Assembly: GCA_965226795.1 (NCBI GenBank)
Contig: CBDDDZ010000002.1
Location: 224,001-288,000, forward strand
Source of the DNA: Candidatus Latescibacterota bacterium
Lineage (GTDB): Bacteria > Latescibacterota > UBA2968 > GCA-2709665
DNA: 64,000 nucleotides
Reading direction: 5' to 3'
How positions within the stretch are numbered: position 1 is the first letter of the stretch; each line of letters opens with the position of its first letter. The position numbers and the translations under genes are program-made. Below, in pieces: positions 21,598 through 56,630 of the stretch. Under the pieces are notes generated by a model. It did no database searches. It was not told the origin of the DNA and worked only from the letters and a program-made list of their open reading frames with translations.

Positions 21598-21830
21598 TGT
21601 CCTTTTTCTTGTACGCCCAAGAAAAAGGACCAAAAAGAACGGCGCCTGCCTGCCGAGCACGGCTCGGCGCAGGCAGGCCGTTCGGCACGGGGCCGGTTTT
21701 TCCGAAAATCGTCTCAGATGAATAAGAGGAAATTGGGTGTCCTGCGGGTCCCTCAGGTGTACCAGAACCATAGCAGGGGACGGATCAACGTGGAAAAACC
21801 CCCTTCTCCACAACCGGTCGCAGGTGCGAT
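21598..21830 (+). repeat. Structured intergenic module, copy A
   Basis: CCTTTTTCTT/AAGAAAAAGG hairpin, GC box, GGTTTTTCC...GGAAAAACC arms around an 82-nt core. Confidence 0.85.
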
Positions 21831-22154
21831 TAAACACATTAGAGGGCGATAGAAATCCCTACTCCCCCACCGGGCGGTCGTGTGGTAGACCGCGAAGGAC
21901 CGATGTGTGGATTTGGGCTTGGACCGCGTTTTTCCGATTGCTGTTGTCGCATTTTGCGACACCCGGAAGCAAGGGCGTCGTGCCCGTGCAAACGTTGTGC
22001 CGTATAGCAACGGGTTTTCGCTGGTTTTAGGCTGACTGCTGTACGCTGATCGCTGAAAACTGACGGCTTCTTACGTCTCCCGTCTCCCTACTCACCCGGT
22101 GGCCACGGGGTGGAAGGGCGGTCTGTTTCCCGGGGGTGGATGCGTGAGGTGTTT

Positions 22155-23282
22155 ATGACGACGACCTTATACAGAACGATCACCTTTCTTGCAGTGCTGA
22201 TTCTTGTGGCCGCATGCGGAGGGAAGGAACAACCCGCCGCCCCAGAGCCGCCGCCTGCCGAGACGACGGGTGGCAACATCCAGCAGAACAGACCCCTGCT
22301 TTCGGACGACAAGTTCGGTGCCGACTCGAATCCTACGGGCAATCCCATCGGAGGTGGAGACGGATACAATCAACGGGTCGAGGAGTACGACTATTTCGTT
22401 ACGAACCGCACGGAACTCCTGAACGCGCTCAAGCAGGCGACCGGGGGCCAGGTGGTCTATCTGGCGGACACTGCCAGGGTGGACCTTACAGGCGACCGGA
22501 ACATAGAGATCCGCGCGGGCGTCACGCTGGCCAGCGGGCGGGGCAAGCCCGATTCCGAGGGTGGCCTGGTCTATTCCAAGGAACTGGAGACGATTCCACT
22601 CTTTCTCGTCACTGGTCCCGACGTTCGCGTTACCGGGCTCAGGCTGGAGGGCCCGGACACGATGAGACGCACCGAGCAGATGAAGCAACTCCTGTCGGAA
22701 GGCCGGCAATTCAGTATCCCCAACTCCCGGGGCATTCAGACCGCACATCCCAGGCTCGAAGTGGACAACTGCGAACTCTGGGGTTGGACCCACGCCGCCA
22801 TTTTCCTCCGGGCGAATTCAACGGACAACCACGTCCACCATAACTATTTCCACCACAACCAGCGCCACCATATGGGCTACGGCGTGAATTTGGACCGGTC
22901 GGAAGCGCTGATTGAAGCCAACCTGTTCGACTGGTGCCGGCACCATATCGCCGGTACGGGCAGGCCAGGCACGAGCTACGAAGCCCGCTACAACCTGGTT
23001 CTCGAAAACGCCAACAGCCACAGTTTTGACATGCACGGCGGCCGGGACCGGGATGACGGAACGGATATCGCCGGCGACGTCATTCTCATTCATCACAACA
23101 CGTTTCTGGCTATCGACGTGGAGGCCGTCGTCATCCGGGGGATTCCCCAGGAAGCCTGTGAGATTTACAACAACTGGTTTATCCATTGGCTCCCGGCTAC
23201 CGCTGTCAGACAGGCATACGCCACGGGTAATCTACGGCTCTATTCAAACCAGTACACGCACAACCGGCTCGTCAAGGACTGA
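22155..23282 (+). CDS. Lipoprotein with right-handed beta-helix (pectin lyase-like), copy 1
   Basis: GAGGT RBS; lipobox LVAAC; repeated HHNYFHHN, IEANLF, IHHNTF strands. Confidence 0.85.
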   Translation: MTTTLYRTITFLAVLILVAACGGKEQPAAPEPPPAETTGGNIQQNRPLLSDDKFGADSNPTGNPIGGGDGYNQRVEEYDYFVTNRTELLNALKQATGGQVVYLADTARVDLTGDRNIEIRAGVTLASGRGKPDSEGGLVYSKELETIPLFLVTGPDVRVTGLRLEGPDTMRRTEQMKQLLSEGRQFSIPNSRGIQTAHPRLEVDNCELWGWTHAAIFLRANSTDNHVHHNYFHHNQRHHMGYGVNLDRSEALIEANLFDWCRHHIAGTGRPGTSYEARYNLVLENANSHSFDMHGGRDRDDGTDIAGDVILIHHNTFLAIDVEAVVIRGIPQEACEIYNNWFIHWLPATAVRQAYATGNLRLYSNQYTHNRLVKD

Positions 23283-23473
23283 GAAAAAAGCGATAGACGA
23301 TATCTTGAAGAGATACGCGATGGTCCGCGGCAAGATTGGCGGATGTCGAATCGTTGGACCGTATCGTTAACCGGTCTTGGCTGACAGCTAATTGCTGATA
23401 GCTGTTTTTCCTGACTGCTGAAACCTGTTCACTGACCGCTTCTTGCCGGGAATGATTGGACGGTGTTTAGAAA

Positions 23474-24601
23474 ATGACAACGACGTTGTACAGAAAGCTG
23501 ATGTGTCTCGCCGCTTTATTTCTGATGGCGGCATGCGGCGGGAAAGACAAATCCGCCGCGCCGGAGACGCCGGACGGCGGTTCGGGAAATGGCAACACCC
23601 AGCAGAACAGACCCCTGCTTTCGGACGACAAGTTCGGCGCCGACTCGAACCCCACGGGCAATCCCATCGGCGGCGGAGATGGGTACGATCGGCTTGTCGA
23701 TCGACACGACTACATGGTTACGAACCGGACGGAACTACTGGACGCGCTCGAACGGGCGGGCGCGGGCGAGGTCGTCTATCTCGCCGACACCGCGAGGGTG
23801 GATCTGACGGGCGACCGGAACATCGAGATCCGCGCGGGCGTCACGCTGGCCAGCGGGCGGGGCAAGCCCGATTCGGATGGGGGCCTCGTTTATTCCAAAC
23901 AACTGGAGACCCTTCCGCTCTTCCTCGTTACCGGGGCCGACGTACGCGTGACCGGCCTCAGGCTGGAGGGCCCGGACACCATGAGGCGCACCGAGCAGAT
24001 GAAGGAGCTCCTTGCAGTCGGGGAGTATTACAGCATTCCCAACTCCCGGGGCATTCAGACCGTACATCCCAGGCTCGAAGTGGACAACTGTGAACTCTGG
24101 GGCTGGAGTCACGGCGCGATTTTCCTCCGGGCCAATTCAACGGACAACCACATCCACCACAACTATTTCCACCACAACCAGCGCCATGGCCTGGGTTACG
24201 GCGTGGTTATGGACCGATCCGAGGCCCTCATCGAGGCCAACCTGTTCGACTGGGGCCGGCACCATATTGCCGGCACGGGCAGGCCCGGCACGAGTTACGA
24301 AGCCCGCTACAACCTGGTTCTGGAAAACGCCAACAGCCACAGTTTCGACATGCACGGCGGAAGGGACCGGGACGACGGAACAGACATCGCCGGCGGCCTC
24401 ATTCTCATTCATCACAATACGTTCATGGCCGTCGACGTGGAAGCCGTGACAATCCGGGGCATACCCCAGGATATCTGTGACATCTACAATAACTGGTTTA
24501 TCCACTGGCTCCCGGCTACCGCAATCAGACAGGCCTACGCCACGGGAAACTTGCGTCACTACTCAAATCAGTATACACATAATCGAGTCGTAAAGGACTG
24601 A
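23474..24601 (+). CDS. Lipoprotein with right-handed beta-helix, copy 2 (tandem paralogue)
   Basis: Lipobox LMAAC; nearly collinear with copy 1. Confidence 0.85.
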   Translation: MTTTLYRKLMCLAALFLMAACGGKDKSAAPETPDGGSGNGNTQQNRPLLSDDKFGADSNPTGNPIGGGDGYDRLVDRHDYMVTNRTELLDALERAGAGEVVYLADTARVDLTGDRNIEIRAGVTLASGRGKPDSDGGLVYSKQLETLPLFLVTGADVRVTGLRLEGPDTMRRTEQMKELLAVGEYYSIPNSRGIQTVHPRLEVDNCELWGWSHGAIFLRANSTDNHIHHNYFHHNQRHGLGYGVVMDRSEALIEANLFDWGRHHIAGTGRPGTSYEARYNLVLENANSHSFDMHGGRDRDDGTDIAGGLILIHHNTFMAVDVEAVTIRGIPQDICDIYNNWFIHWLPATAIRQAYATGNLRHYSNQYTHNRVVKD

Positions 24602-24636
24602 GCGAACAGCGCATTGTCGCGAGAGGAGATCTGCGG

Positions 24637-25089
24637 ATGGCGAAACGGTGGAAGGTGTATTTGTCCGGCGAAATCCACAGTGACTGGCGGGACCGGATCG
24701 TCAGCGCGGCGGTGGAAAAGGAACTTCCGGTCTCCTTTACGGCGCCTGTTACCGATCACGCCGCGAGCGACAACTGCGGCGTGGATATCCTCGGCCCCGA
24801 AGCGTCCGGGTTCTGGAAGGATCACAAGGGCGCGAAGATCAATGCCATCCGGACCCGCACGCTTATCAGCGATGCCGACGTCGTGGTGGTGCGCTTCGGA
24901 GGCACATATCGGCAGTGGAACGCGGCGTTCGACGCCGGTTTCGCCGCGGCGCTGGGCAAGCCGATCGTCGTGATGCACGACGCCGACATCGCCCACGCGC
25001 TCAAGGAAGTCGACTCGGCGGCGATGGCGGTGGCACAGACGCCCGAACAGGTAGCGGACGTTCTCGGGTACGTGACCCGGGAAACGTGA
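24637..25089 (+). CDS. YtoQ family protein (nucleoside deoxyribosyltransferase-like)
   Basis: VYLSGEIHSDWR, DHAASD, YRQWNAAFDAG, HALKE motifs. Confidence 0.85.
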   Translation: MAKRWKVYLSGEIHSDWRDRIVSAAVEKELPVSFTAPVTDHAASDNCGVDILGPEASGFWKDHKGAKINAIRTRTLISDADVVVVRFGGTYRQWNAAFDAGFAAALGKPIVVMHDADIAHALKEVDSAAMAVAQTPEQVADVLGYVTRET

Positions 25090-25440
25090 ATTGCACGTTA
25101 CCCGTCTGACAGATGTGTCGAAAATAACCGGCAAATGGGCGGCGAATGCCCACAGGTTCCACACGTGCAAGTGGTGCCGTGTCGACCGTACCCGGGAATG
25201 CACCGCCGTATCGCAAGCGCGTATTTCCCCCAACGTGTCCGGTACGGCTGAACAAAAAACATCTTGAAAGATGAACAAAGATGCACTATATTATGGTGCT
25301 TTCTTTCCCCTTTATTTCCCCGCAATTAGGTTCGTTTTGAGCCCCGTTTCGTCCTGATCCCACGTCAGGTCCGTCTGTCTCCCCGCCTGTACTGTCGCCG
25401 CGCCGGGTGGCGCGTTCTAGCGACCCCGAAAAGGTGTACT

Positions 25441-27342
25441 ATGCCCGAAACCAAACCGACAATCAGGAAATCGAGTCAGCTCTCGCTATCCATTAACGGG
25501 AAACCCGCGCCCACCCCGAGGTCGTCCGGCAAGCGCAACAATGGCGCATCGCCAGAACACGGGTACGATGAGTCCAAAGTCAAGACGCTGAGTTCACTGG
25601 AACACATTCGCCTCCGAACCGGCATGTACATCGGCCGTCTGGGCGATGGATCCAATCCGGATGATGGCATCTACGTCCTGCTCAAGGAAGTCATCGACAA
25701 TGCTGTAGATGAATTTATTATGGGTTACGGAAAAAAGATTGACGTCAGCATCGAAAACAACCGGGTCCGGGTTCGAGACTACGGCCGCGGCATTCCCCTC
25801 GGCAAAGTCATCGACTGCGTTTCCACCATCAATACCGGCGCTAAATACAACGACGATGTCTTCCAGTTCAGCGTGGGCCTCAACGGCGTGGGAACGAAGG
25901 CCGTCAACGCCCTCTCTTCAGATTTCAGGGCGGTTGCCTTTCGTGACGGAAATTACTTCGCAGCGCATTTTGAACGAGGGCGTCTCAAAGGGAAAAAGGA
26001 GGGTCGGAAGCCCGGCGAACCCGACGGATCCTATTTCGAGTTTCTGCCGGATGTAAAGATTTTCGGAGAAGACTTCGCGTTCAATTTCGACTATGTCAAA
26101 CAGCGGATGTGGAACTACGCCTGCCTGAACAGCGGGCTTTCGCTGGTTTTCAACAAGGAGCGCTTTGTATCCAGAAACGGACTGCTGGACTTCCTCACCC
26201 GCGAAGTCGGCGAGTCGGCTCTGTATGAACCGCTTTATTACAAATCTCAATACCTCGAGTTTGCCTTTACCCACACGGTCAGCTATGGCGAAACGCACTT
26301 CTCGTTCGTCAACGGCCAATACACCAGCGACGGCGGGGCCCACCAGAGCGCCTTCCGCGAGGGCATCCTCAAGGGCGTGAATGAGTTCTACAAGAAGAAC
26401 TTCAACGGTATCGACGTGCGGGAGAGCATCTCGGGCGCCGTGGCCGTCAAACTCAAGGCCCCTGTCTTCGAGTCCCAGACCAAGAACAAACTGGGGAATA
26501 CGGATATCCGGGGGTGGATTGTCACGGACGTCAAGAGCGCCGTGGTCGACCTCCTCCACAAGAACCAGACCGCGGCCCGGCGCCTGTCCGAGAAAATCGC
26601 CCAAAACGAACGGTTGCGAAAGGAACTCAACGCCGTCAAGAAAGAGGCCAAGGAGGCCGCACGGAAAATCGCAATCAAGATTCCGCATTTCAAAGACTGC
26701 AAATACCACCTGGACCACAAGAAACACGGCGAAGACTCAACCATCTTCATCACCGAAGGCCCATCCGCGGCTGGCTCCATGGTCGCCTCGCGCGACGTCT
26801 ACACCCAGGCGATCTTCGGCCTCAAGGGCGTTCCTCTGAACGTATTCGGCAAGAACAAGGCAGCGGTGTACAAGAACGAGGAACTGTTTAACCTCATGAT
26901 GGCGCTCGGCATCGAAGACGGCATCGAAAATCTGCGTTTCAACAAAATCGTTATCGCCACCGATGCGGACCATGACGGCTACCATATCCGGTACCTGCTC
27001 CTCACGTATTTCCTGAACTACTTCGAGGAACTGGTGCTGGCCGGCCATCTTTATATTCTTGAAACCCCGCTTTTCCGCGTGCGAAACAGCAAGGTCACCC
27101 GCTACTGCTACAACAATCGGGAGCGCGACAGTGCCCTGGAGGATATCAAAAATCCCGAAATCACCCGCTTCAAAGGCCTCGGGGAGATCTCGCCCAAAGA
27201 ATTCGGGCAGTTCATCGGCGACGATATTCGACTGGTCAAAGTCAATATCAGGTCCATCTCCGAAATCGCCGATATGCTCAGTTTTTACATGGGCAAGAAC
27301 ACCCCGGAACGCAGGGACTACATTATCGAAAATCTGATCTGA
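25441..27342 (+). CDS. parE: Type IIA topoisomerase subunit B (topoisomerase IV ParE-like)
   Basis: EHIRLRTGMYIG, EVIDNAVDE, GLNGVG, FESQTK, TEG.SA, ATDADHDG, RFKGLGE. Confidence 0.88.
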   Translation: MPETKPTIRKSSQLSLSINGKPAPTPRSSGKRNNGASPEHGYDESKVKTLSSLEHIRLRTGMYIGRLGDGSNPDDGIYVLLKEVIDNAVDEFIMGYGKKIDVSIENNRVRVRDYGRGIPLGKVIDCVSTINTGAKYNDDVFQFSVGLNGVGTKAVNALSSDFRAVAFRDGNYFAAHFERGRLKGKKEGRKPGEPDGSYFEFLPDVKIFGEDFAFNFDYVKQRMWNYACLNSGLSLVFNKERFVSRNGLLDFLTREVGESALYEPLYYKSQYLEFAFTHTVSYGETHFSFVNGQYTSDGGAHQSAFREGILKGVNEFYKKNFNGIDVRESISGAVAVKLKAPVFESQTKNKLGNTDIRGWIVTDVKSAVVDLLHKNQTAARRLSEKIAQNERLRKELNAVKKEAKEAARKIAIKIPHFKDCKYHLDHKKHGEDSTIFITEGPSAAGSMVASRDVYTQAIFGLKGVPLNVFGKNKAAVYKNEELFNLMMALGIEDGIENLRFNKIVIATDADHDGYHIRYLLLTYFLNYFEELVLAGHLYILETPLFRVRNSKVTRYCYNNRERDSALEDIKNPEITRFKGLGEISPKEFGQFIGDDIRLVKVNIRSISEIADMLSFYMGKNTPERRDYIIENLI

Positions 27343-27451
27343 ACACCCCGTCGATCTCCTTCGCAAGGAATACAGTGGCCAGGAGAAAACCGCGGTCCCG
27401 TCTTTCCTTGGCCCCTGATCCCTTGATGTTGAACGGTGAAGAGGAGAAACC

Positions 27452-29341
27452 GTGGCATACGTCGACACCTTGTACGAAAAATATTATCTCGAGTTTGCGT
27501 CCTATTCCATCAAGAACCGGGCGATCCCCAACATCGACGACGGCTTCAAGCCGGTTCAGCGGCGCATTCTGCACGCCCTGTACGAGATGCACGACGGCAA
27601 GTACCACAAGGTCGCCAACGTCGTGGGCCAGACCATGCGGTACCATCCCCACGGCGACCTCTCAATCTTCGGCGCCCTCGTGAACCTGGCCAACAAGGAA
27701 TTGTTCATCGACAGGCAGGGCAATTTCGGCAACATCTTCACCGGCGACGAAGCCTCTGCCGCACGCTATATCGAATGCCGCCTCACGCCACTTGCAAGAG
27801 AGGTTGTCTTCAACCCCGAGATAACCGAATACGAAGACTCCTACGATGGTCGCAACCGTGAACCGATCGCATTTCCCGCCAAAATCCCGGTCCTGCTCGC
27901 CATTGGCTCAGAGGGCATTGCCGTCGGTATGACCACCCGCATTCTCCCGCACAACCTCATCGAACTGCTCGAAGCGCAGATTGCCTGCCTGCAGGGCAAA
28001 CCCTTCGGGGTCCAACCCGACTTTCCCACAGGGGGCCTGGTCGATGTTTCCGAATATAATGACGGCAACGGGAAGGTTCTCGCCCGCGCCAGACTGGACA
28101 CCAGAGATCCGAAACGCATCGTCGTGCGCGAACTACCCTACGGCACGACAACCGAAACCCTCATTGCCTCCATCGAAGACGCCACCAAAAAAGGCAAACT
28201 CAAAATCACGGGTATCAGCGATTATACGACCGATCAGGTGGAAATAGAAATCCAGCTCGCCCGCGGCGTGCATACCAAGGACACCGTTCACGCGCTGTAC
28301 GCATTTACGGACTGCGAAACGTCGATATCGACGAATCTGCTGGTCATACAGGACAACCGGCCGGAAATTACGTCCGTGACCGAAGTGATCGAATACAACA
28401 CCGGCCGCCTCGTGGAGATTCTCAGGACCGAACTCAAACTCGAGGAACGTCAGCTGACCGCGCGGCATCACGCTAAAACCCTTGAACAGGTCTTTATTGA
28501 AAATCGCGTTTACAAAAGCATCGAAGAGGAGACCACCTCCGAGCGTGTCTACCGTGCGGTGTTCGACGGGTTGAAACCCTACCAGGAGAGCATCAGGGGG
28601 GAAGTTTCACGGGAGGACGTGGAAAACCTGCTCAGAATCCCGATCAGGCGCATCTCGCTCTACGATATCAACAAAGCCGAGGCGGAAATGCAGGATATTC
28701 GCACGCGCCTCAGGGAGGTCCGTGCCGACCTGCGCGGCATGCAGGCGTTCGCCGTTGCGTTTCTCGAGGGCCTCATTGAGAAATATCGCAACGACCACCC
28801 CCGTAAAACCGAGATCACAAGCATCCAGAGAGTCGACGCTCGGGAGGCCGCCCAGCGCAATCTCAAGCTGCGATACGACAAGAATACAGGTTATCTGGGC
28901 CACCAGGTCAACGGCGGCGCCCTTTTCGACGTGTCGCCGTACGACCGCGTTCTGGTGATCCGAAAAACCGGCATGTACTCCGTTGTGGACGCCCCCGAAA
29001 AGCTCTTCGTGGATAGGGGCATGCTTTTCTGCGGTTTCGTGGACGAAGACCGCGTCTACAATCTTCTCTACAAGGAGAACGAAACCGGATATCTCTACAT
29101 AAAACGTTGCAAAATCGACAGATTCATCCTGAACCGGGGGTACGAATTGGCGCCCGAAGGCTGCCGAATCCTGAAACTCACCACCGACTCCGACCGTGCA
29201 ATCCGGGCCCACTTCAAACCCAAACCCCGGGTGAGAATCACAGAAGAGGAATTCGTCATCGCAGAATATCCCGTTCGCGGCAACAGGGCCAGGGGCATTC
29301 GTCTCGCCAACCGCGAAGTCCAGACCGTCAAGTTCATCTGA
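27452..29341 (+). CDS. parC: Type IIA topoisomerase subunit A (short ParC-like)
   Basis: DGFKPVQRR, YHPHGD, QGNFG, AARYIECRL (catalytic Tyr), GIAVGM, PDFPTGG; 629 aa, no canonical GyrA box seen. Confidence 0.88.
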   Translation: MAYVDTLYEKYYLEFASYSIKNRAIPNIDDGFKPVQRRILHALYEMHDGKYHKVANVVGQTMRYHPHGDLSIFGALVNLANKELFIDRQGNFGNIFTGDEASAARYIECRLTPLAREVVFNPEITEYEDSYDGRNREPIAFPAKIPVLLAIGSEGIAVGMTTRILPHNLIELLEAQIACLQGKPFGVQPDFPTGGLVDVSEYNDGNGKVLARARLDTRDPKRIVVRELPYGTTTETLIASIEDATKKGKLKITGISDYTTDQVEIEIQLARGVHTKDTVHALYAFTDCETSISTNLLVIQDNRPEITSVTEVIEYNTGRLVEILRTELKLEERQLTARHHAKTLEQVFIENRVYKSIEEETTSERVYRAVFDGLKPYQESIRGEVSREDVENLLRIPIRRISLYDINKAEAEMQDIRTRLREVRADLRGMQAFAVAFLEGLIEKYRNDHPRKTEITSIQRVDAREAAQRNLKLRYDKNTGYLGHQVNGGALFDVSPYDRVLVIRKTGMYSVVDAPEKLFVDRGMLFCGFVDEDRVYNLLYKENETGYLYIKRCKIDRFILNRGYELAPEGCRILKLTTDSDRAIRAHFKPKPRVRITEEEFVIAEYPVRGNRARGIRLANREVQTVKFI

Positions 29342-29423
29342 ACCCGATACCGGTGTCAAGACAGAAGCAGGATCGGACGCGCCTCCGTTTTTGTCTCCCG
29401 GCGTCACGGAAAAAGAGACCCAT

Positions 29424-30188: not shown

Positions 30189-30227
30189 TGGAGTACGCCG
30201 CATCGTATTTCAATTCTCCGATCGTAC

Positions 30228-30445
30228 TGCCGGTGGTGTGGGGGCTTTTCCGCGCTAATCCGTTCAGCAACAGGTTAATGGAACACCAGAGAACTACGAA
30301 GGCCACTAAACCAGGTATACGCCCCTTGGGGTGATTCGCGGAAAAGCAGCCCCGCGGCGTTTGAGCGGCGCCCTTCTTTTTCGCCCTTTTTCTTGGGCGA
30401 TGCAAGAAAAAGGGCAAGGGAATAGGGGACGTTTGGGGGTGGTGA
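30228..30445 (-). repeat. Structured intergenic module, copy F
   Basis: GCCCTTTTTCTTG/CAAGAAAAAGGGC hairpin; GCTTTTCCGCG/CGCGGAAAAGC arms around an 82-nt core. Confidence 0.85.
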
Positions 30446-30537
30446 AGACTCTAACTCACGGGCGCTGCGAGGCGGGATGAATCGGCGGAAGAATCATGGC
30501 AGGTTTCAGGGAGTTGGACACTGAAAAGGAGATGGAC

Positions 30538-31728: not shown

Positions 31729-31876
31729 CGACGCTTTTTGAGATGTAGTACAAAAATCGGATTGTTGCTGCAACCAGTAGTTGCAGGTAAACGCCAAAAG
31801 TGCCTCGGCTTTTCACCGAGGCGCTTTTCGTGGCAAAACTATACTGCTTTATTCACGAATCATTCATCTCAGCCCC

Positions 31877-32058
31877 CACAATGACTTGTCGAGGCGTTGA
31901 GGAAGCGGGTTTGAAGATGGGGCAGACATTCCTGTCTGCCCTTCTAACGGTCCTTCCGAATCCGCGGCCAAGGGGGAGTAGGGGCAGGTTTGAAACCTGC
32001 CCCTACGGTTGGAGCATCGAAACGAATGGATATGAGCAGACAGGAATGTCTGCTCCAC
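31877..32058. repeat. REP doublet with nested GTAG palindrome
   Basis: Same arms as 12235-12400; GTAGGGGCAGGTTTGAAACCTGCCCCTAC at 31978-32006 in the spacer. Confidence 0.8.
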
Positions 32059-34166: not shown

Positions 34167-34416
34167 AACGCTCCGATCGGGGCCGCTGTCTCACGGCCTC
34201 CTGGATAGGTTGTACACGGTCATTATTTCCGGTCTCCGCCGGTTCTGTCACTAGCCTGCCGGCCTGCCGTTTCCTCCGACCGCCCGTCTCGCTGCGTACC
34301 TATCGTTGCATACACTGAGCCAGCCAAAGGTAGTCCGTAGAACCGGCTTGCCGAAATGCCCGCGTTTCGAAATGCCCGCGTTTCGTGACCCGTTTGGCGC
34401 CATTCATTGCCCTTCG

Positions 34417-34565
34417 CCGACCCTTCGACCCTTCGACAGGCTCAGGGACCACAAGCCCAGGGACCACAAGCTCAGGGAGCGGCTCTCAGGGTACAGGCTT
34501 TATGATGTCCTTTGTTTGCGTCTTATGCGTTGCCTGTGCTGCTTGCGTTGAGCTTGTCGAAATGG
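34417..34565. repeat. CTTCGACAGGCTCAG / TTGAGCTTGTCGAA inverted doublet
   Basis: Shared with 12661-12733 and 51712-51815. Confidence 0.75.
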
Positions 34566-36943: not shown

Positions 36944-36973
36944 GGTTACTCCTATCGTTATGCTTCAAAAACA

Positions 36974-37945
36974 AGCTATCAGCGGTCAGCTATCAGCGGT
37001 CAGCTATCAGCGTTCAGCAAGAAGCAAAACCATCAAAACCTGCGCCTGTTGCCATTCAGCAGGGACAATTCTTGCATGGAACTGCGTTCCGGTCGGCCAC
37101 AGGCTTTACCTCTCCCATTCACTTTTATTTTCTCTTCGTCCTTTTTCTTATTCGCGTAAGAAAAAGGACCAAAAAGAACCGCGCCTGCCTGCCGAGCACG
37201 ACTCGGCGCAGGCAGGCCGCTCGGCGCGGGGCCGGTTTTTCAGCGAATTGCCTCATGAGACCGGAAAGACGATTGTGCCCTGGGTACGCGTTCGAACACA
37301 CGACGCCCCGGTGCTGAACGGAATAACGCGGAAAAACCCACCTCTCCGCCACCGATCGCGTGAGGGATAAATCTCAGGAGCGATTAAACCTTTCTGCGAT
37401 AAGAATTGCGAGTTTTTCCGTGCATTGATGTTTCTGGACGTTAAAGCGCGGAGAATCCAGTTCCACCCCCGAAGCGGGTGGCCTGTTGTTCCGGTGATGT
37501 TGCGGGACAACAGGGGACGCTTGGTGTTGGCGTTCGATGCTGATGGTGAGCGGTGCGTTTTATGCCGCGAACAGACCCCCCACACCACCGGTCGCGCCGT
37601 TGTTGTATACGTAGGGGCGACCCATGGGTCGCCTGCCTGGTGGCTCTGATGAAACCATGCCGGTATCTAACGCGATGCGTTTCGAGAGGACTACCAGAGC
37701 AGAGCGCGCGATTCCGTCCAATGCAGGGGTACGATCTGCTTCCGAGGCTGGCAGGGCAGAGTATCATGTGGATCCCGTAAGGCGATTCGCGCTGTGCATA
37801 AGGCAGGCCCCGCGCCCAGCGGCGACTTTTGGTTCCTTTTGGTCGCTTCAAAAGGAACCCGCCGGAGGAAGGGAATTTGGGGAGAGGTGGTTTTTGAATT
37901 TGGTTTTCCCCTATTGCTTTCGGCTGAACGCTGTACGCTGCCTGC
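36974..37945. repeat. Composite element B: two inverted modules with heptamer-repeat outer arms
   Basis: (CAGCTAT/CAGCGGT)n at 36975-37018; module (+) at 37137-37360; GTAG REP at 37611; module (-) at 37698-37885; GCTG heptamers at 37923-37945. Confidence 0.85.
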
Positions 37946-44794: not shown

Positions 44795-45015
44795 AAATCC
44801 CACCACCCCCGAACGTCCCCTATTCCCTTGCCCTTTTTCTTGTATCGCCCAAGAAAAAGGGCGAAAAAGAAGGGCGCCGCTCGGCGCGGGGCCGGTTTTT
44901 CCACGAATCTCGTCAGCGGCGTAGACAAGCAATTGTGCCCTACGTACGAATCCGGCCCCACGATGCTTCAATGCTGGACGGAACAGCGTGGAAAAACCCC
45001 CATCTCCGCCACCGG
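44795..45015 (+). repeat. Structured intergenic module, copy C
   Basis: CCCTTTTTCTTG/CAAGAAAAAGGG hairpin; perfect GGTTTTTCCACG/CGTGGAAAAACC arms around an 81-nt core. Confidence 0.85.
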
Positions 45016-45148
45016 GCGGGCGAAGGATGCAACACGAGGAGCCGCGAACAACCGCGTGCGGCGTATGAATTCGTAGGGGCAGCCCTTGTGGCTGCCCACG
45101 TGGCGGCGCGGGAGGTGGAATGGTCGTCCTTATTGGCATATAGAAAGC

Positions 45149-46728: not shown

Positions 46729-46763
46729 GGGCGACGCATGCGGAGGAAGGGGAAAGGCAAGAC

Positions 46764-47340
46764 AGGTTGCGTTCCGGGCCTGTAAGGTCATTTCCCTTTC
46801 TCTCTTTATCCTGTCCTTCTTTGTTCTTCGTCCTTTTTCTTGTACGCCCAAGAAAAAGGACGAAAAAGAACGGCGCCGCTCGGCGCGGAGCCGGTTTTTC
46901 GGCGAATTACCCCTGTGACGGGTACGTACACTCTTGCCCTGCGAACGCGTAAGCACCCGCCGGGCAACGGCGCTAAACGGAATGGCGCGGAAAAACCCCC
47001 CACACCACAACCGTTCGCACGAGGGATAAAGCGTAGGAGCGCGGCGAACCCGTCTACAACAAGAGCTGCAAGTTTTTCCGTACAATGATGATGCTGGACG
47101 TTAAAGCGCGGAGAATCCAGCTCCACCCGCGGAGCGGGTGACCGGTTGTTCCGGGGATTATGCGGGACAGCAGGGGACGCCTGTTTCTGGCGTTCGATGT
47201 TGATGGTGAGCGGCGCGATTTTTGCCGCGAACAAACCCCCCGCACCGCTTACCGCTGATTGGTTCCTTTTGGTCGCTTCAAAAGGAACCCGCCGGAGGCA
47301 GGGAATTTGGGGAGATGTGGATGTTGAATTTGCTTTTCCG
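46764..47340. repeat. Composite element D (full module plus truncated inverted module)
   Basis: Module at 46829-47020; middle segment shared with B; GTTCCTTTTG/CAAAAGGAAC hairpin at 47262-47288. Confidence 0.85.
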
Positions 47341-47510
47341 CTTATTCTTCCGCTCCCGCGCCGAAGGCAAAAAACCAAATGGATAAAGGGGAATGATGGG
47401 TCGCGCTCCGGGCGCGCGCGGGGCGAGGCCATGTGCTGGGCGCAAGAAGACGGGGGCTAGATTCCTCGCCCCCGTCCGTTACCAGATTCTCGTCTGTCTC
47501 TGCGGCGTTC

Positions 47511-48104: not shown

Positions 48105-48252
48105 GTGGTCTCCTCCGTATGGGTTAGTGTTTCTCAAGAATGTCCATTCAAAATAAGGCCTTCATCCACAATGTCAAGCCCCTATGACGACACGGCTTCA
48201 CGGTTCTCGTCTGAAAGAAAAGCTGCCGATTCGGGCGTTTTCCGCGGTTCCA

Positions 48253-49323: not shown

Positions 49324-49556
49324 GCCTTGCCCCCATTGCGTTTGTTATGTGCTCAACCCCAGACGGATTGGGCCGCGTCGGATCAGACTTCCCCTACGGC
49401 GGTAACCGGCATCCGACTTAGCGGAATAACGTGACTACCGGGCCGGGCAAATCCGCCTTGTGCATCGCGCACGGCGGCGTTATTCTATACCGGTCGCGGG
49501 ATTTCCATTCCAACGCACGCCGCGTCCGGACCCGATTAAAGAGAAAGGACTCCTCG

Positions 49557-50201
49557 ATGAACACACTGCAACTCGCGGCGCCTTCCAATGCCTTTGTCCT
49601 GTTCAATGGCAGGGACCTCAGTAACTGGACCGCCCTGGACGGCGGCGAACCCGGCTGGACCGTGGAAGACGGTATCCTCCAGGTCGTGCCCCGGGCCGGG
49701 GATATCGTGAATACCGAACGCCTGACCGATTTCTATCTCCACCTGGAGTTCCGATGCCCGGACATGCCCGACGCCACGGGCCAGGCCAAGGGCAACAGCG
49801 GGGTTTTCCTACAAGGCATCTATGAGATCCAGGTTCTGGATTCATTCGGGGTGAGCATTCCCGGCACCGGAGACTGCGGCGCCCTCTACGATCAGTCGTC
49901 CCCCCTCGTCAACGCCTGCAAGCCCGCAATGGAATGGCAGACGTATGACATCTTCTTCCGTGCGCCGCGCATGAACGACGCCGGGGAAGTCAGCGAGCAA
50001 GCCCGCGCCACGGTACTTCAAAACGGCATCGTCATTCACAACAATGTCGGGATTTCAGGCCCCACCGGTTCCGCTTCCAGTATGGCGGTGGAAACCTCCG
50101 GCCCCCTGCGCCTGCAGGACCACAAGGATCGAGTAGCCTATCGGAACATCTGGGCCGTACCGCTTCCACTTAAGGGATCCGGAACCTACGAACCGCGGTA
50201 G
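49557..50201 (+). CDS. DUF1080 (3-keto-disaccharide hydrolase-like) protein
   Basis: LFNGRDLSNW, GNSGVF, YEIQVLD, EWQTYDI, LQDH, YRNIW. Confidence 0.9.
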   Translation: MNTLQLAAPSNAFVLFNGRDLSNWTALDGGEPGWTVEDGILQVVPRAGDIVNTERLTDFYLHLEFRCPDMPDATGQAKGNSGVFLQGIYEIQVLDSFGVSIPGTGDCGALYDQSSPLVNACKPAMEWQTYDIFFRAPRMNDAGEVSEQARATVLQNGIVIHNNVGISGPTGSASSMAVETSGPLRLQDHKDRVAYRNIWAVPLPLKGSGTYEPR

Positions 50202-50217
50202 CATCGAAACATCGGGA

Positions 50218-50883
50218 TTGGAAAACACCCGCCGCGGAACCGGCCCTGCACCGGAAAAGAAACCACCTGCCGCCAAAGACGATCCTGTGAATGACACCAT
50301 CGACCTGAGCAGCCTGGAGACAGACCCCCGCCTGCTCAGGTTTGCGCTCAATGGAAGCTGTGTCGACGGCCCGTCCTTTGAAACCTGGAAGCGCGCCCGG
50401 TCATTCATCGCTTCAGCGATCCACCGCCCCGGAACCCTGCTGGACATCGGCTGCGCAAACGGGTTCCTGCTGCGATGTCTTACGGAATGGTCCGACCACG
50501 AACTCATTCCGTTCGGCATCGACTCCAGCGCCGGCAGGGCCGGGGATACCGAGCGGTTCTTCCCTTCACAGCGCGACCATTTCGCCCGCCTTCCGGTCGA
50601 GCGGCTGGGTGAGATCGGTTCTCGTGGCCTTCCGGATAAGTACGACTTCATCTACTGGGCCGTCTGGGACAATTACGGGTTCGACCGCCAGGATCGAATC
50701 GACCTCCTCAGACGCGCCCTCGAAAACGTGAGAGACGATGGACGGCTGATTCTGGGTTTTTACGACCGCGAGCCCAAAACCATCGAAAACAAAATCGCCC
50801 GGATCAAGGACCTCAACCTGGGGCATGCTGTCCGCGTGGCGAATCCGAACGGACCGCAGGTACTGCTTCGTTTGTGTAAATAG
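50218..50883 (+). CDS. Class I SAM methyltransferase-like protein
   Basis: LLDIGCANG, GIDS, YDFI, DGRLILG; start uncertain. Confidence 0.7.
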   Translation: MENTRRGTGPAPEKKPPAAKDDPVNDTIDLSSLETDPRLLRFALNGSCVDGPSFETWKRARSFIASAIHRPGTLLDIGCANGFLLRCLTEWSDHELIPFGIDSSAGRAGDTERFFPSQRDHFARLPVERLGEIGSRGLPDKYDFIYWAVWDNYGFDRQDRIDLLRRALENVRDDGRLILGFYDREPKTIENKIARIKDLNLGHAVRVANPNGPQVLLRLCK

Positions 50884-51043
50884 CCGCATCTGGGGAGACG
50901 CAAGAGGCAAGAGGGGAGAAGGCCACCCAGCACCCGACCGCCTTTGCCATATCTCACGTCTAGCTTCTTGCGCTTGGGTCGGGTCGACGGATGGTGTGAA
51001 TGCTGAAAGACGACGCTTTTTCTTTAAGAAATCCGACTTTGGA

Positions 51044-51508
51044 TCATCTCTTGATCACGTCCTCGTACTCCTGGAACATTTCGATACTGATCCCGTCAGG
51101 GTCCAGCGCGTACATGGCGCGGGCAACGACCACCCCGTCGCGGTCCACGTCCGCGGGCGGATTGATGGATCCGAGCCCCGCGTCCTTCAGCCGCGCGTGC
51201 ATCGCATCCACGTTGTCCACCTCGAACGCCACGTGCGACGCGCCCAGAAACCGGTTCTCCTGGGGCCGCGCTTCGACCTTCGGATGAACGTACTGCACGA
51301 GTTCCAGGATAAACTCGTTCACCGGATGCCGCAGGATCGCAATCATCAGATGCACGTTATCGTAACCCAGAATCGTATCGTACGACGGCAGATTCTTACG
51401 CTCCGATATCCGGACCAGTTCCATCCCCAGCTGGTCCCGGTAGAACGAAACCGAACGCTCCAGATCCGATACCGTAAATCCGTGGTGATGCCCCATCACA
51501 ATGCCCAT
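51044..51508 (-). CDS. VOC/glyoxalase family protein
   Basis: HHGFTVSDLERSVSFY, LEL, HVAFEVDN, DPDG..IE. Confidence 0.9.
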   Translation of the reverse strand: MGIVMGHHHGFTVSDLERSVSFYRDQLGMELVRISERKNLPSYDTILGYDNVHLMIAILRHPVNEFILELVQYVHPKVEARPQENRFLGASHVAFEVDNVDAMHARLKDAGLGSINPPADVDRDGVVVARAMYALDPDGISIEMFQEYEDVIKR

Positions 51509-51711
51509 GTCTCTTCGCTCCCTGAAAATCGACGACCGTTCCGGCGGATGGATACGGACTGCCGCAGCGACGGCACAATCGGCAATCGTAATGATTCCTA
51601 TTATGTCAAGCGCTGCGACGTCCCAAAACCCATTTTTGTTAATATATAACCTGGAGCGGTAAAAAGCTGACGTTTTTTCCGCCTGGTACAGAAGAGTTCT
51701 TCGAAGCGCGT

Positions 51712-51815
51712 TCATTGAGCTTGTCGAAATGCCCGCGCTTCGCTTCCCCGACGGGTTACCTGCGCCGACCCTTCGACCCTTCGACAGGCTCAGGGACCAC
51801 AAGCTCAGGGAGCGG
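51712..51815. repeat. TTGAGCTTGTCGAA / CTTCGACAGGCTCAG doublet
   Basis: Shared with 34417-34565. Confidence 0.75.
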
Positions 51816-51915
51816 CGCTGCGAGGGATTCCGTTCACGCCTGACCTACGCTCTTTGCATGCGTTGCTTCCCGCCAAGCGCCCGTTGGACTCGAAGTGTTG
51901 TTCGTTTCGATTCAG

Positions 51916-51943
51916 GGAACTCTCGGACCACGACAGTCGTCTA
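51916..51943 (+). promoter_or_regulatory. ECF sigma-type promoter
   Basis: GGAACT-N17-GTCTA upstream of the exported thioredoxin. Confidence 0.55.
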
Positions 51944-52176
51944 TACTGAGCCAGTCACGGTGATCCGTCGACTGTTCGGAATCCAACCGGCCCGGCCTGG
52001 CAGACGTCAGGCCGTCCGGCGCAGATAGATGTTGACCATTCCGGCGGGTAATACCCACTAAGGCCGGAGGGGCGGCAATGCGTCGGTTCCGAAATCCGTC
52101 AGGGTCAGGCGTGCGCCCAATCGTTGCGCTACCGCCGGCCCGGTCCGTTCTCACACCGTTTCAAAGGAGTTGATCC

Positions 52177-52617
52177 ATGCGCATTCGACGCACGCTCGCC
52201 CTCGCAACCGTTTCCCTTGTTCTGATCGCCGGTCCCGCTCTCGCGGGTACCGTAGCGGTGGATGGCCAGGGCGACCCGGTCCTCTACGTCGTGAAAGTAC
52301 ATGCCGACTGGTGCGGCGCCTGTACGGACCTGGTACCCGTCCTCAATGAGGTTCGTACGGCTGTGGCCGATAAGCCCGTCCTCTTTGTCGAATTGGACGT
52401 GACCGACGCGGCCAGCACCGCCCAATCCCGCCTGCTGGCAGCTGCGCTCGGTATCGAGGAGCATCTCAAGGCCAACAACAGAACGGGCCTGGTTCTGCTC
52501 ATCGATCCCGCCAAGAAGGCCGTCGTGGAGACCCTGACCCTCAAGAGTCCCGCGGACGAGATGACCGGCAAAATCAAGGCGCACATCGCCGCAAGCGGAA
52601 AGACGTGCTGCGAGTGA
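52177..52617 (+). CDS. Exported thioredoxin-like protein
   Basis: Signal peptide (PALA), HADWCGAC, AAGGAG RBS. Confidence 0.85.
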   Translation: MRIRRTLALATVSLVLIAGPALAGTVAVDGQGDPVLYVVKVHADWCGACTDLVPVLNEVRTAVADKPVLFVELDVTDAASTAQSRLLAAALGIEEHLKANNRTGLVLLIDPAKKAVVETLTLKSPADEMTGKIKAHIAASGKTCCE

Positions 52618-52786
52618 GGACCGGAAGTATGGCGCGGCAATGCGTTCGGCCGCCCGAGGATTGAGATCCGGGGTCAGCCAAACCCACGGATGCGGCCCTC
52701 CAGGTCACTTTGGATGTCCGTTCTCAACGCCAACTGGTTGCCGCGCATCCGTGGAAACAGCGTCTCCTTCGAAGAGGAATTCCGGA

Positions 52787-53854
52787 ATGATCATAAAAAA
52801 AATCACGGCGACCACGGTCAGCATCCCCTATGCCGCCCCCGTCGGCCCGTACGTGGGTCGAGGCGCCGGCGGCGGCACGCTGGGTGGGACCGGACTTATT
52901 GTCAGAATCGAAGCCGACACGGGTCTCGTCGGATGGGGCGAGGGAACCGGCGGTTTCGAATTGGACCCCAACACGATCCTTGCGGGCAACCATGTCTCGG
53001 ATATCGAAAAGGCGATCGGCCTGATGGAAAACGCGGGCATCACCAGGGGTCCGATGTCGGGCATTGAAATGGCGCTCTGGGACCTCCTGGGCAAGCACGC
53101 CGGCCTGCCGCTGTGCCGCCTGATGGGCGGCGTTGTCCGCACCGAGGTCGACTTCACCGCCTGCATGGGCCTGAAGGAACCCGAACAGTCGGCCGCTACC
53201 GCCCGTGAATACATCGACCGGTGGGGGTTCCGATTCATCAAAACAAAGGCGGGAAACGACCCCGCGCAGGACCTGGCCATTGCCGAAGCGGCGCAGAAGG
53301 AGATTGGGGACGAAGCCGTATTCCGTCCGGATGCGAACGGTGGATATCCCCCGGAAGAGACGCTGGACATTATGAAAAAAATGGCGGACCTGGGCGTCCG
53401 CCACTTTGAAGACCCGTGCCATACCGAGCACGTGGAAACGCTGGCGCGGGTGCGGTCCGACGTCGGCACCCATGTCCTCGTGAACGGCGGCGTGGCCCTG
53501 CCCGACAGCATCCGGCCTTTTCTGGAAGCCGGCTGCGCCGACTCCCTCATGCCGGACACCCCGGCCGCCGGTGCGCTGCTTCGCGTGAGAAAAATCGCGG
53601 ATGCGGCGGAGCCATGGGAGGTCCCGTGCCTGATGCACTGTTCGCACGACCTGGGCCTCAAAACCGCCGCGATTACCCATATAGCCGCCGCCACGCCCAA
53701 CTTCTCGGGGCCCAACGACACCTGCTACCACGGGCTGGTCGACGACGTTCTCGCCGAACCCTTTACATTTGAAAACGGCCAGCTGGAAGTCCCCCTCGGC
53801 CCCGGCCTCGGCGTGGAAGTCGACGAATCCAAAGTCGAGAAATATCGCGTCTGA
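52787..53854 (+). CDS. Mandelate racemase/MLE family protein
   Basis: GWGE, EMALWDLLGK, KTK, DAN, EDP, GPGLG. Confidence 0.9.
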   Translation: MIIKKITATTVSIPYAAPVGPYVGRGAGGGTLGGTGLIVRIEADTGLVGWGEGTGGFELDPNTILAGNHVSDIEKAIGLMENAGITRGPMSGIEMALWDLLGKHAGLPLCRLMGGVVRTEVDFTACMGLKEPEQSAATAREYIDRWGFRFIKTKAGNDPAQDLAIAEAAQKEIGDEAVFRPDANGGYPPEETLDIMKKMADLGVRHFEDPCHTEHVETLARVRSDVGTHVLVNGGVALPDSIRPFLEAGCADSLMPDTPAAGALLRVRKIADAAEPWEVPCLMHCSHDLGLKTAAITHIAAATPNFSGPNDTCYHGLVDDVLAEPFTFENGQLEVPLGPGLGVEVDESKVEKYRV

Positions 53855-53945
53855 TCCGTTTCCGGCATTAGGGCCGAATCGTTTCCCGGCGCGGCGGGAC
53901 GGCATCGGCCCCGTTGTCCTTTCATAACATGAAGGAAGGCCTGGC

Positions 53946-54785
53946 ATGGACTCCGTCCACGTCGACGACCGCGACTGGTCCGCGCTGACCCTGGGCGAAC
54001 GCATCCGCCAGATCGAACTCGACGGATACGTCGTCCTGCCCGGTCTACTCACTCCCGGGCACGTCGCGGCGCTCAAGGCCGAGACCGCCAGGTTGGAGAC
54101 CCGGCCGGTGGACTACAGCGTCCACCAGCAGGTCTGCCCGAATCTGCAGTTCACCGGCGGCCACATCACCGAACTCATCGCCCATCCGCCCACCCTCGCC
54201 TTCCTGAACGAACTCTTCGGCGGCGAGACCATCTTCATGTCCTACACGTACGCCCGCTCCGAACCCGGCCACCCCGGTATCAGTCTCCATACCGACGGCC
54301 AGCCCTACGGCTCTCGGATCTTCGGCTACGGCGGCAGCGTTCCGTTCATGGTCAGAGTGCTGTATTACCTGGACGACCTCACGCGGGATGTCTCGCCCTT
54401 CCGGGTCATACCCCGCTCCCATCTATCCATGCATGCCGACGCCAACCCGTACAAACGCTACGGGGACCATCCCGAACAGGTGATGGTCCCCGTCAAGACA
54501 GGCGGCGCCGTTCTGATCAACCACAAAGTCTTCCACGGGAACTTCCCGAACACCGGCGCCCATGCCCGTGAAATGCTCGCTATTGCCTACCGCCCCGCGT
54601 GGGCCGGCCCCATTGCCGACGTGCCCGCGTGGAACGACGCCGACCTCGCCGCCCTGCCCGAAACCGTGTGCCCCCTGTTTGCCGATCCCAACACCCGCCA
54701 CTGGGACTTCCAGGGCGGCAATAAACCTGCCAACATGGCCCGAGAGGCGCCCGGTATCAACCCCAGCCGCTGGGATCGTCGGTAG
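53946..54785 (+). CDS. PhyH-family dioxygenase
   Basis: DGYVVL.GLL, LHTD, YYLDD, VIP.SH, VFHG. Confidence 0.88.
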   Translation: MDSVHVDDRDWSALTLGERIRQIELDGYVVLPGLLTPGHVAALKAETARLETRPVDYSVHQQVCPNLQFTGGHITELIAHPPTLAFLNELFGGETIFMSYTYARSEPGHPGISLHTDGQPYGSRIFGYGGSVPFMVRVLYYLDDLTRDVSPFRVIPRSHLSMHADANPYKRYGDHPEQVMVPVKTGGAVLINHKVFHGNFPNTGAHAREMLAIAYRPAWAGPIADVPAWNDADLAALPETVCPLFADPNTRHWDFQGGNKPANMAREAPGINPSRWDRR

Positions 54786-54943
54786 GGGAATCCGTAGTCG
54801 AAAATCGACGACCCGTCAACCGATTTCGCATCCCCGCGTCGAACGGGAATCCGCGCGGGTCTCCGATCGGACTCACCTTCCAATTACGAGACGTTTGTCG
54901 CGGCTCCATGCATCTCAAGTGAGCGAACTCGTGTTTCCCGCAT

Positions 54944-55831
54944 TCATGTCTGCGGGTTCCACTCCGCCCCCAGGGCATCGAACTGGCTGTAAAAAGCCTC
55001 CAGCACGGCGTCGGCGAGAGGTCCCCTTGTCGTCAGTTCCAGGTTATTCCGTGCGTGGTCCGGATTCGTCGTTCCCACAATGGCCGTATCGATGGCGTCC
55101 TGTGAAAGCGTGAAACGCAGCGAAAGTTCGATGGGATCCTCGGGGGCACCGTCCGGAATCTCAAGCTGCTGCGCCCGCTCAAAGTAGGCGTCGGCGTAAC
55201 CGTACGGCGACGCTGACTGCCCGATCGCCCCGTTCGCAATCGGCCTTTTGGCGATCACGCCCATCTCCGCCGCCTTCGCCTCCGGAAGCACGTCGGCGCG
55301 CCCTTTCTGATCCACCAGGTTGAACGACGTCTGCAGCGTGCTGAATACTCCCATCCGGATCGCCTCCAGCGCGTCATCGCCGTCGCCGCTGTAACCCACG
55401 TACCGTGTCTTTCCCGCTTCCTTCGCCCGCATCACAGCGTCGACGGCCTCTCCCTCCCGGAGCACTTCTGCCGAACAGGTGTGGAGTTGAACCAGGTCGA
55501 CGTGGTCCGTCCTGAGCCGCTTTAAAGACCGGTCGATGCTCTCCTCGATCACGGCCCGTGTCCAGGGCTCGCCAGTTGCGTCTCCGGTCACGTGGCCGCA
55601 CTTCGTGGCCAGCACGTATTCGTTCCGCCTCCCACCGATGTACCGGCCGATCAGTTCCTCGCTGTCGTGGTAGCATGCGGCGGTGTCGATCAACGTGATC
55701 CCGTCGTCCAGCAGCCGGTTCAGCACCCTTCCCACCCGATCGGGGTTTACGTCTTCGAGCCCGATCCTGGCGCCGCCAAACCCCAGGCGGGTGACTACCA
55801 GATCAGTCCTTCCCAGCGTGCGTGTTTCCAT
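54944..55831 (-). CDS. Aldo/keto reductase
   Basis: LGRT...LGFG, IDTA..Y, SE..IG, ATKCG, SLKRLRTDHVDLVQLH. Confidence 0.92.
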   Translation of the reverse strand: METRTLGRTDLVVTRLGFGGARIGLEDVNPDRVGRVLNRLLDDGITLIDTAACYHDSEELIGRYIGGRRNEYVLATKCGHVTGDATGEPWTRAVIEESIDRSLKRLRTDHVDLVQLHTCSAEVLREGEAVDAVMRAKEAGKTRYVGYSGDGDDALEAIRMGVFSTLQTSFNLVDQKGRADVLPEAKAAEMGVIAKRPIANGAIGQSASPYGYADAYFERAQQLEIPDGAPEDPIELSLRFTLSQDAIDTAIVGTTNPDHARNNLELTTRGPLADAVLEAFYSQFDALGAEWNPQT

Positions 55832-55879
55832 CGCGAACCCTCCATTAAGAGCGTGAGACGTAACAGGTCCACCCTGCGC

Positions 55880-56630
55880 CCAGCCATTAGCTGTCAGCTA
55901 TCAGCTGTCAGCTAGAGGCAAAAACCCGATTCAAATTCCACATCACCCCAGATTCCCTGCCTTCGGCGAGTTCCTTTTGAAGCGACCAAAAGGAACCAAA
56001 AGTCGCCGCTGGGCGCGGGGCCGTACATATGCATTGCGCGAATCACCTCACCGGACCCACCGGATCCGCTGCCCTACCGATCGCCGAGGATACCGTAATT
56101 CGGATTGGGACGGAACAACGCGCCCTGCTTTGGTAGTGCTCTGGAAACGTATCGCGTTAGATACCGGGATGGTTTCATCAGAGCGAGCCACCAGGCGGGC
56201 GACCCATGGGTCGCCCCTACGAATACAACAACGGCGTGACCGGTGGTGTGGGGGGTTTTTCCGCGTTTTTCCGTCCAGCACAGCAGTACTGTTACATCTG
56301 ACGGGCTCGTAGGGCACCCAATTGCATTTTTTCCCCTTAGGCGATTCGCGGAAAAACCGGCTCCGCGCCGAGCGGCCTGCCTGCGCCGAGCCGTGCTCGG
56401 CAGGCAGGCGCGTTTCTTTTTGGTCCTTTTTCTTACGCGAATAAGAAAAAGGACGAAGAGAAAAACAAAGTTGAAGTGGAAGGTAAAGCCTGTGTCCGCC
56501 GGGCCGTAGTTCCAAAGGGTGCTTGTCCGCAAATGGTCGACCCAGTAAGACCCTGTGGATAATCCACAAGTGGACAACCTCACGGTAGAATTCCCAATTG
56601 TCTTTAGCTGTACGCTAACAGCTTATTGCT
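55880..56630. repeat. Composite element E (inverted relative to B)
   Basis: Heptamer arms at 55880-55914 and 56605-56630; module (+) at 55945-56128; GTAG REP at 56197-56220; module (-) at 56240-56455. Confidence 0.85.

Follow-up and report, generated by a model that had tools for sequence, protein, structure and literature searches.

The window analysed here, 64,000 nucleotides from a Candidatus Latescibacterota bacterium (contig CBDDDZ010000002.1; G000:C2:224001-288000, where G000 is this genome and G0xx and L0xx denote related genomes and fetched loci), carries eight copies of a non-coding module that, on balance, is probably a non-autonomous repeat, its recognised form being a folded single strand of DNA. 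In the orientation of a preliminary description of this DNA, the module consists of a C/T-rich leader, a head, a GC hairpin block, an arm, a core, the inverted arm and a variable tail. All eight copies of that description are present, with core lengths, anchors and arm changes as claimed, and the genome-wide collection that it proposed returned 102 copies (73 of type 1 and 29 of type 2), namely those of 146 loose-pattern matches that also carried the upstream block. Cores measure 81-82 nt in 68 of the 73 type-1 copies and 78-79 nt in 26 of the 29 type-2 copies. Because so many copies were kept and the lengths are sharply peaked despite a search pattern that permitted cores of about 71-92 nt, the family is not a product of chance. 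Pairing arms, a mirror rule in the head, a fixed loop length, gain and loss of copies and inverted type-1/type-2 pairs were all observed. From these we infer a fold, a trans-acting protein and a mode of spread: the strand would fold into an intrastrand triple helix rich in A/T, followed by a GC hairpin and by a 12-bp stem that closes an open loop of about 80 nt, and the protein would recognise the triplex together with the stem and three anchors of the loop, all spaced at fixed distances.

The type-1 head has eight steps, with three tracts in triplex register on one strand. In the copy with its core at 21707, the head (21603..21639, + strand) reads TTTTTCTT, loop, AAGAAAAA, linker, AAAAAGAA; the first tract pairs with the second, the third is the mirror image, and the first loop is 8-9 nt long in the family. 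What had been described as a repeated A-rich tract is thus a mirror repeat and not a direct repeat; the hairpin variants reported with it (CTTG/CAAG vs CTTA/TAAG and TCC/GGA vs CCC/GGG) were found in the sequence. A strict 7-step finder gave 118 matches in the genome and 0 in the genome read backwards, and the 7-step pattern lies upstream of 67 of the 73 type-1 cores. The mirror rule was tested on heads from viral-collection contigs, retrieved with a short motif in which the informative positions were unconstrained. A stem of at least 4 bp is present in 22 of 28 distinct heads, and the mean run is 5.4 for the mirror against 2.7 for the direct repeat. The T-run ends in C in 14 of these 22, and the third arm has G at the matching index in 13 of these (shuffle mean 5.0; 0 of 20,000 shuffles reached 13); as several rows are kin, they stand for about eight lineages and not for 14 independent events. 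Sister genera have T4-C/A4-G in place of T5-C/A5-G, all three tracts being shortened together. Since G covaries in the mirror arm across distant lineages, it is a signature of an intrastrand triple helix, and the head is predicted from its sequence to form one rich in A/T.

Intrastrand-triplex repeats have been known since BoxC, their function and mover not being established (Holder et al. 2015, PMC4666352, whose accessible parts are the source of all statements made here on such repeats). BoxC/PIT/TMECO repeats fold into triplexes in vitro and, like the module, hold a pyrimidine tract, loop, purine tract, linker and mirror tract on one strand, are intergenic, come as two types in inverted pairs with a copy number varying among kin, and, as reported for E. 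coli K-12, crowd away from the inferred terminus. In 5 of 5 cases a TMECO repeat of type A is paired with one of type B, and types 1 and 2 of the module would be two partner ends in the manner of BoxC types A and B. The module differs from TMECO in being A/T-rich instead of G/C-rich, in its first loop (8-9 nt against the 1-6 nt defined by ITxF) and in having the GC hairpin and the stem with the ~80-nt loop. With respect to the stem of at least 6-7 that characterises BoxC/PIT/TM, type 1 lies above this value with eight steps and type 2 below it with four. The preliminary description did not recognise a described family. An Rfam search agrees with it, giving 0 matches in the window (best E 0.15 at 55850-56600, the gathering score not being reached), but the triplex head ties the module to the described BoxC/PIT/TM class, and it is the attached fixed-length loop on a triplex repeat that looks new. 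The module likely belongs to one kind of mobile repeat with E. coli BoxC and likely spreads without being autonomous.

According to Holder et al., T-A-T triplets drive the stability of the pyrimidine motif (PMC4666352); the T-A-T-rich fold more likely sits on the strand opposite to the orientation used here. A small RNA gene or element on that strand, with the ~80-nt-loop stem, the GC hairpin and a 3' U-A-U-rich triple helix shielding its end, is an alternative that we regard as unlikely. The element for nuclear expression (ENE) of MALAT1 is an example of a 3' triple helix that protects an RNA end. The triplex would be 3'-terminal on the opposite strand, 107 heads with the exact three-tract set have a third arm free of T, RNA forms pyrimidine-motif but not purine-motif triplexes (PMC4666352), and A-C mismatches exceed G-T mismatches in the + strand arms (28 vs 12), all of which speak for an RNA. 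However, counting distinct changes removes the wobble excess (9 vs 10), inspection by eye showed no conserved promoter and the orientation of copies relative to genes shows no clear bias; an unstructured core, the lack of an Rfam match and a rapid turnover of copies also argue against it.

The stem and the loop length bear the marks of selection that the preliminary description had proposed. Over the 73 type-1 copies of the genome, compensatory changes occur at 3 of the 12 arm pairs (C-G in 52 and T-A in 14 at pair 2, G-C in 59 and A-T in 9 at pair 3, T-A in 48 and C-G in 20 at pair 10), at least 11 of the 12 pairs are intact in 60 copies, and other genera have additional paired arm variants. 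Together with the mirror covariation of the head, these compensatory pairs back a selected single-strand fold. The length constraint on the core is real, as indicated by sharp length peaks, rare gaps and the same lengths in other genera: in three of these, cores are 78-81 nt long in 16 of 17 measured, the exception having an insertion, and length and the three anchors are kept over four genera in two families. Pairwise identity of the cores is 55% (type 1, 111 cores) and 65% (type 2, 59 cores), that of the flanks 76% and 90%. Gap events per substitution amount to 4% and 3% in the cores against 14% and 8% downstream. An old repeat with a neutrally decaying interior, in which nothing besides head and arms matters and the length is fixed through common descent, would account for the ordinary substitutions (transitions outnumber transversions about 2.3-fold, and each of the four bases changes at a similar rate) and for the few indels that the type-2 leader and tail also show in the multiple alignment. 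Length and three anchors preserved at 55% identity and also across two families, with indels in the core at about one third of their frequency in the adjacent tail, make such decay very improbable.

In the alignment of the eight window copies, AAT, TG.CCT and ACGGA, the anchors noticed before, do not vary; over 72 distinct type-1 copies they hold 1.2-2 bits at most anchor columns. Between them no internal helix was detected by RNAalifold, averaged pair probabilities, mutual information or helix excess, and the cores fold no better than shuffled sequences (z -0.3 to +0.1). A coding core was rejected as every frame has stops and cores of 81/82 and 78/79 nt coexist. Under the single-strand reading, length and anchors would be kept because the trans-acting protein reads them at fixed distances, and the remaining loop would drift by ordinary point mutation with occasional reshuffling by exchange between copies. 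Spaced about 30 and 41 bp apart, the anchors also fit a double-stranded array for protein binding, of the transposon-end or recombination-site type, with phased A-tracts, arms and anchors about 3, 4 and 1 helical turns apart; the inverted 12-bp arms agree with it, as does the pairing of type 1 and type 2 if they are left and right ends. We consider such an array quite unlikely, given that the head, with its mirror covariation, requires a third strand, that head-to-head pairs occur too (L009) and that neither a gene between paired copies nor a target duplication was seen.

The preliminary description also suggested that the variable loops are possibly guide-like. The cores would then be guide or bridge segments of a programmable recombinase or nuclease. 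The cores are indeed fixed in length, unpaired and unique in nearly every copy, but they follow a position-by-position consensus instead of captured sequence. Cores compared with the masked genome gave 29.8 bits against 29.7-30.0 in resampled controls, the match between a core and its own flank is 8.67 nt against 8.52 nt when permuted (permutation maximum 8.68), and one module compared with phage genomes gave no match, as did plasmid and phage searches with the window copies. With no IS110 match in the genome either, this proposal is largely refuted and hardly credible. IS110 bridge RNAs, the variable repeats of diversity-generating retroelements (DGRs) and integron attC sites all hold variable sequence in a conserved frame. 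The module differs from the first in having no IS110 gene and no target matches, from the second in showing no adenine bias and no adjacent reverse transcriptase (RT), and from the third in its unpaired core, mixed orientation and lack of a cassette array and of an adjacent integrase.

The core varies as had been stated, but variability is not limited to it: the ~100 nt past the second arm are equally variable, and divergence from the type-2 consensus climbs from 5% in the head to 26% in the core and 31% in the tail. This gradient would be expected if the body downstream of the triplex were diversified by a local mutagenic or conversion process set off at the triplex, by polymerase arrest followed by error-prone or template-switched restart, with the anchors kept by selection. 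PIT elements do stop DNA polymerase in vitro (PMC4666352). In C3, the two members of a tandem show about 7 differences in 200 nt upstream (~3.5%), 12 in the 79 nt of the core (15%) and about 30 in the next 100 nt, after which agreement returns; in L051, tandem units ~3-4% different outside the module have cores that are replaced or half-replaced. Nevertheless, local diversification is rather unlikely: three young copies in L045 differ at 2-3 core sites only, 9 of 19 comparisons between orthologous cores of G000 and G008 gave 0-2 differing sites, substitutions follow an ordinary spectrum, and one tandem core has a 20-nt in-register run in common with another copy, which plain gene conversion explains. 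It is a long shot that the triple helix starts an undescribed copying reaction rewriting the ~190 nt behind it in register. If it did, each copy would obtain a unique, length-exact 80-nt loop read by some protein, and the module would be a non-coding diversity generator without an adjacent RT, a new mechanism of diversification; the evidence consists of one or two tandem cases, chiefly the C3 pair.

Species gain and lose copies and swap them with one another. When G000 was compared with 1.6 Mb of G008, 47 syntenic gaps contained a module, of which 18 are filled in both genomes and 29 in one (18 in G000 only, 11 in G008 only). The 19 same-type comparisons revealed 0 (seven cases), 1, 2, 4, 4, 7, 18 and 33-39 (six cases) differing sites; fourfold sites differ by 9-22%, while 12 of the 19 orthologous cores differ at 0-7 sites. 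Locus-specific selection on the cores was rejected, as the plateau of low divergence covers the entire mosaic and a module-free insert has it too. Gene divergence between the two genomes is patchy, 9% of 27-site windows being unchanged against 1.2% expected, and it is slightly lower in genes flanking modules (0.17 vs 0.20). The near-identity of orthologous cores is best explained by DNA that was retained unrecombined or recently exchanged in a patchily recombining species pair. Chimeric cores exist as single cases, and the association between core columns falls with distance (p 0.0015 and 0.001). Junctions are not clustered at TG.CCT, as a site-specific crossover would require, and rearrangement breakpoints are not enriched at modules (2/7).

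Several results weigh against the favoured reading of the module as a non-autonomous repeat whose folded single strand is recognised. The type-2 head (TTTT / AAAA / AAAA) has 4 steps only, so that a triplex is doubtful for this type, with four triples at most, and the wobble counts leave the strand undecided. No near-identical copies were found at unrelated loci in G000; its nearest cores differ at 6-29 sites, two segmental duplicates excepted, and with at least 6 differing sites recent faithful copying is not demonstrated. The PHI (pairwise homoplasy index) test gave no recombination signal (p 0.18-1.0), which leaves exchange between copies established in single cases only. Thirteen filled/empty sites have ragged ends, with neither crisp ends nor a target duplication; modules may therefore ride inside other repeats, and at two of the 13 the module is carried by a different inverted-repeat element. 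None of RAYT, IS110, DUF559, RT, integrase, GIY-YIG and DUF123 emerged as a partner enzyme. No RAYT gene is flanked by a module, the nearest core lying ~10 kb from three Y1_Tnp matches at C2:154-170 kb; IS110 (PF02371) has 0 matches in this 96%-complete genome and GIY-YIG (PF01541) no match; RT matches are at least 8 kb from any module and integrases (tyrosine recombinase) ~40 kb or more away. Among 30 DUF559 loci (of 44 matches), those that have adjoining repeats have G/C-rich ones, and module cores occur at two of the 30, more than 550 nt off. Among 149 neighbours, inspection by eye of the 73 proteins of up to 330 aa revealed none that is mover-like. A substrate of an HUH enzyme or recombinase, as had been proposed, the module may still be, but modules flank no such gene. 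The search for recurrently adjacent genes that had been suggested gave no recurring family by eye beside 33 viral-contig heads, and genomes with few copies have no common neighbour. DUF123, which adjoins one copy, was rejected as a partner as it was not found in G015 or G010, both rich in copies.

A second triplex family, G/C-rich and BoxC-like, adjoins DUF559 genes across this bacterial family. It is represented in the window at 59144 (-), 59320 (+) and 12739 (+) and at about 20 sites in G000, several of them inverted pairs, with a decayed copy at G000 C4:674653. At G000 C2:162816-171780 (L011, L012), a RAYT-type domain lies in frame within a large methyltransferase-like gene, in two copies. 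In G013, an element with ~21-bp terminal inverted repeats brings whole modules to new sites (L036:2736-3311, L048:2703-3568). Segments inserted beside modules in relatives (L055:2140-2871, L061:2106-2871, L059:5544-6066) resemble the flanks of G000 RT genes and are presumably group II intron-like RNA; that of L055 is without an open reading frame.

Within the genome, 101 of the 102 copies are intergenic by our own gene calls. A role as terminator was rejected, there being no clear bias toward gene 3' ends. Among neighbour pairs less than 900 nt apart, 23 of 25 combine type 1 with type 2, tail-to-tail around mosaics of repetitive extragenic palindromes (REPs), and all 23 inverted close pairs are of this mixed composition; no genes lie between paired copies. 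The region C5:0.6-2.8 Mb, around a GC-skew switch that we infer to be the terminus, holds merely 5 of the 102 copies. In strongly skewed DNA the copies are split 53 vs 34 between replication strands, a result that was not used, local skew being unreliable. BLAST detected relatives of the repeat in 18 of 21 genomes of the same family and in 1 of 19 of the sister family; the exact head pattern occurs in 18 of 168 genomes of the phylum. Named relatives with the module are mostly Candidatus Latescibacterota by label, and several RNA runs containing the region bear the label sponge metagenome.

Subfamilies with the same head and other bodies were observed in G020 (L219, L231, L238) and G016 (L220, L223, L233, L237); in one of them, GGCCGCGG arms enclose a longer loop. 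In distant lineages (L074, L081, L093, L139), triplex heads are followed by a T(G/T)(C/T)CCTGCG motif that by eye resembles the middle anchor of the core. Deep homology is possible; L074 was retrieved by a search that demanded this motif.

Other dispersed repeats resemble the module in part. In the accessible text of Bertels and Rainey (2011, PMC3337134), REPINs and BIME-like REP mosaics have conserved ends, a spacer of set length, no identical copies and a dispersed location, and REPINs are thought to move in trans; GTAG REPs occur within the module mosaics. In contrast to the module with its unpaired core, REPIN spacers form hairpins, and REPINs as described there have no triplex head. The module has no GTAG tag in its consensus and flanks no RAYT gene. 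The P. fluorescens families R200, R26 and R178 are long intergenic repeats too, and several families of that species have inverted arms around a variable core, a comparison made by description only (Silby et al. 2009, PMC2718517, in the parts available). The body of a Pseudomonas-like element differs from that of the module and is hairpin-rich by eye (L070, L072 contigs). On these Pseudomonas-like contigs a triplex-headed element adjoins CRISPR-DR4 repeats and GTAG REPs (L070:1450-1860, L072:1177-1204). The term 'R200' was not found in the accessible part of PMC3116915, nor 'triplex' or 'BoxC' in that of PMC6006769. No description of the module was found in the literature, within which subscription journals were thinly covered. 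Membership in TMECO, REPIN, IS110, DGR or attC was rejected by the features tested. What the module family contributes is three-way covariation for a triplex rich in A/T, which here is joined to a large open loop that has kept its length and three anchors in four genera. Folding tests and protein pull-downs thereby gain a defined substrate, and the ~230 natural variants collected mark which positions matter.

The copies of the window lie in both orientations, beside ordinary, unrelated genes. Arms are imperfect, as reported before, in the copies with cores at 21707, 37246 and 46905. In the first, the head is followed by a GC-rich hairpin block that can hold an optional 33-nt palindrome (21640..21694, +) and by the imperfect arm, the 82-nt core 21707-21788 and the inverted arm (21695..21800, +); the palindrome is polymorphic in reads. 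The type-1 copy at 30243..30411 (-) has its head at 30374-30411, an 82-nt core at 30255-30336 and arms of the GCTTTTC type. The type-1 copy at 37142..37338 (+; head 37142-37178, 81-nt core 37246-37326) stands tail-to-tail with a type-2 copy at 37699..37900 (-), which has a 4-step mirror in its head (37826-37857), a 79-nt core at 37709-37787 and the arms GCACAGCGCG / CGCGCTCTGC; the mosaic separating them contains, at 37611..37633 (+), a GTAG-type palindrome that we take to be a REP. Perfect 12-bp arms are found in the type-1 copy at 44834..44998 (+; head 44834-44871, 81-nt core 44906-44986). The type-1 copy at 46834..46997 (+; head 46834-46870, 81-nt core 46905-46985) is faced by a truncated type-2 copy of head and leader only (47259..47352, -), absent from the preliminary description. 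The last pair consists of a type-2 copy with a C-rich leader at 55930..56128 (+; head 55971-56002, 78-nt core 56041-56118) and a type-1 copy at 56254..56450 (-; head 56414-56450, optional 33-nt palindrome 56374-56406, 81-nt core 56266-56346), separated by a GTAG-type palindrome at 56197..56220 (-), likewise assumed to be a REP. Both type-2 copies keep the anchors, as had been claimed. RNA-library contigs from two studies span this last pair, and three RNA runs have no contig over most of the 44906 core; the former give no level, strand or ends, and neither result was used.

Further small intergenic repeat families lie among the modules at 36968-37043, 55876-55937, 34411-34486 and 51759-51819 (TCAGC heptamer runs and a CGACAGGCTCAGG family). 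At 2986-18694, near an ECF (extracytoplasmic function) sigma factor and a zinc-finger gene, the window encodes four large tetratricopeptide repeat (TPR) proteins that have a common coding repeat of ~60 nt, one of them with a Pfam GWxTD match. Tandem paralogous beta-helix genes at 22110-24601 are ~85% alike across 300 nt and contain short 15-nt repeats.

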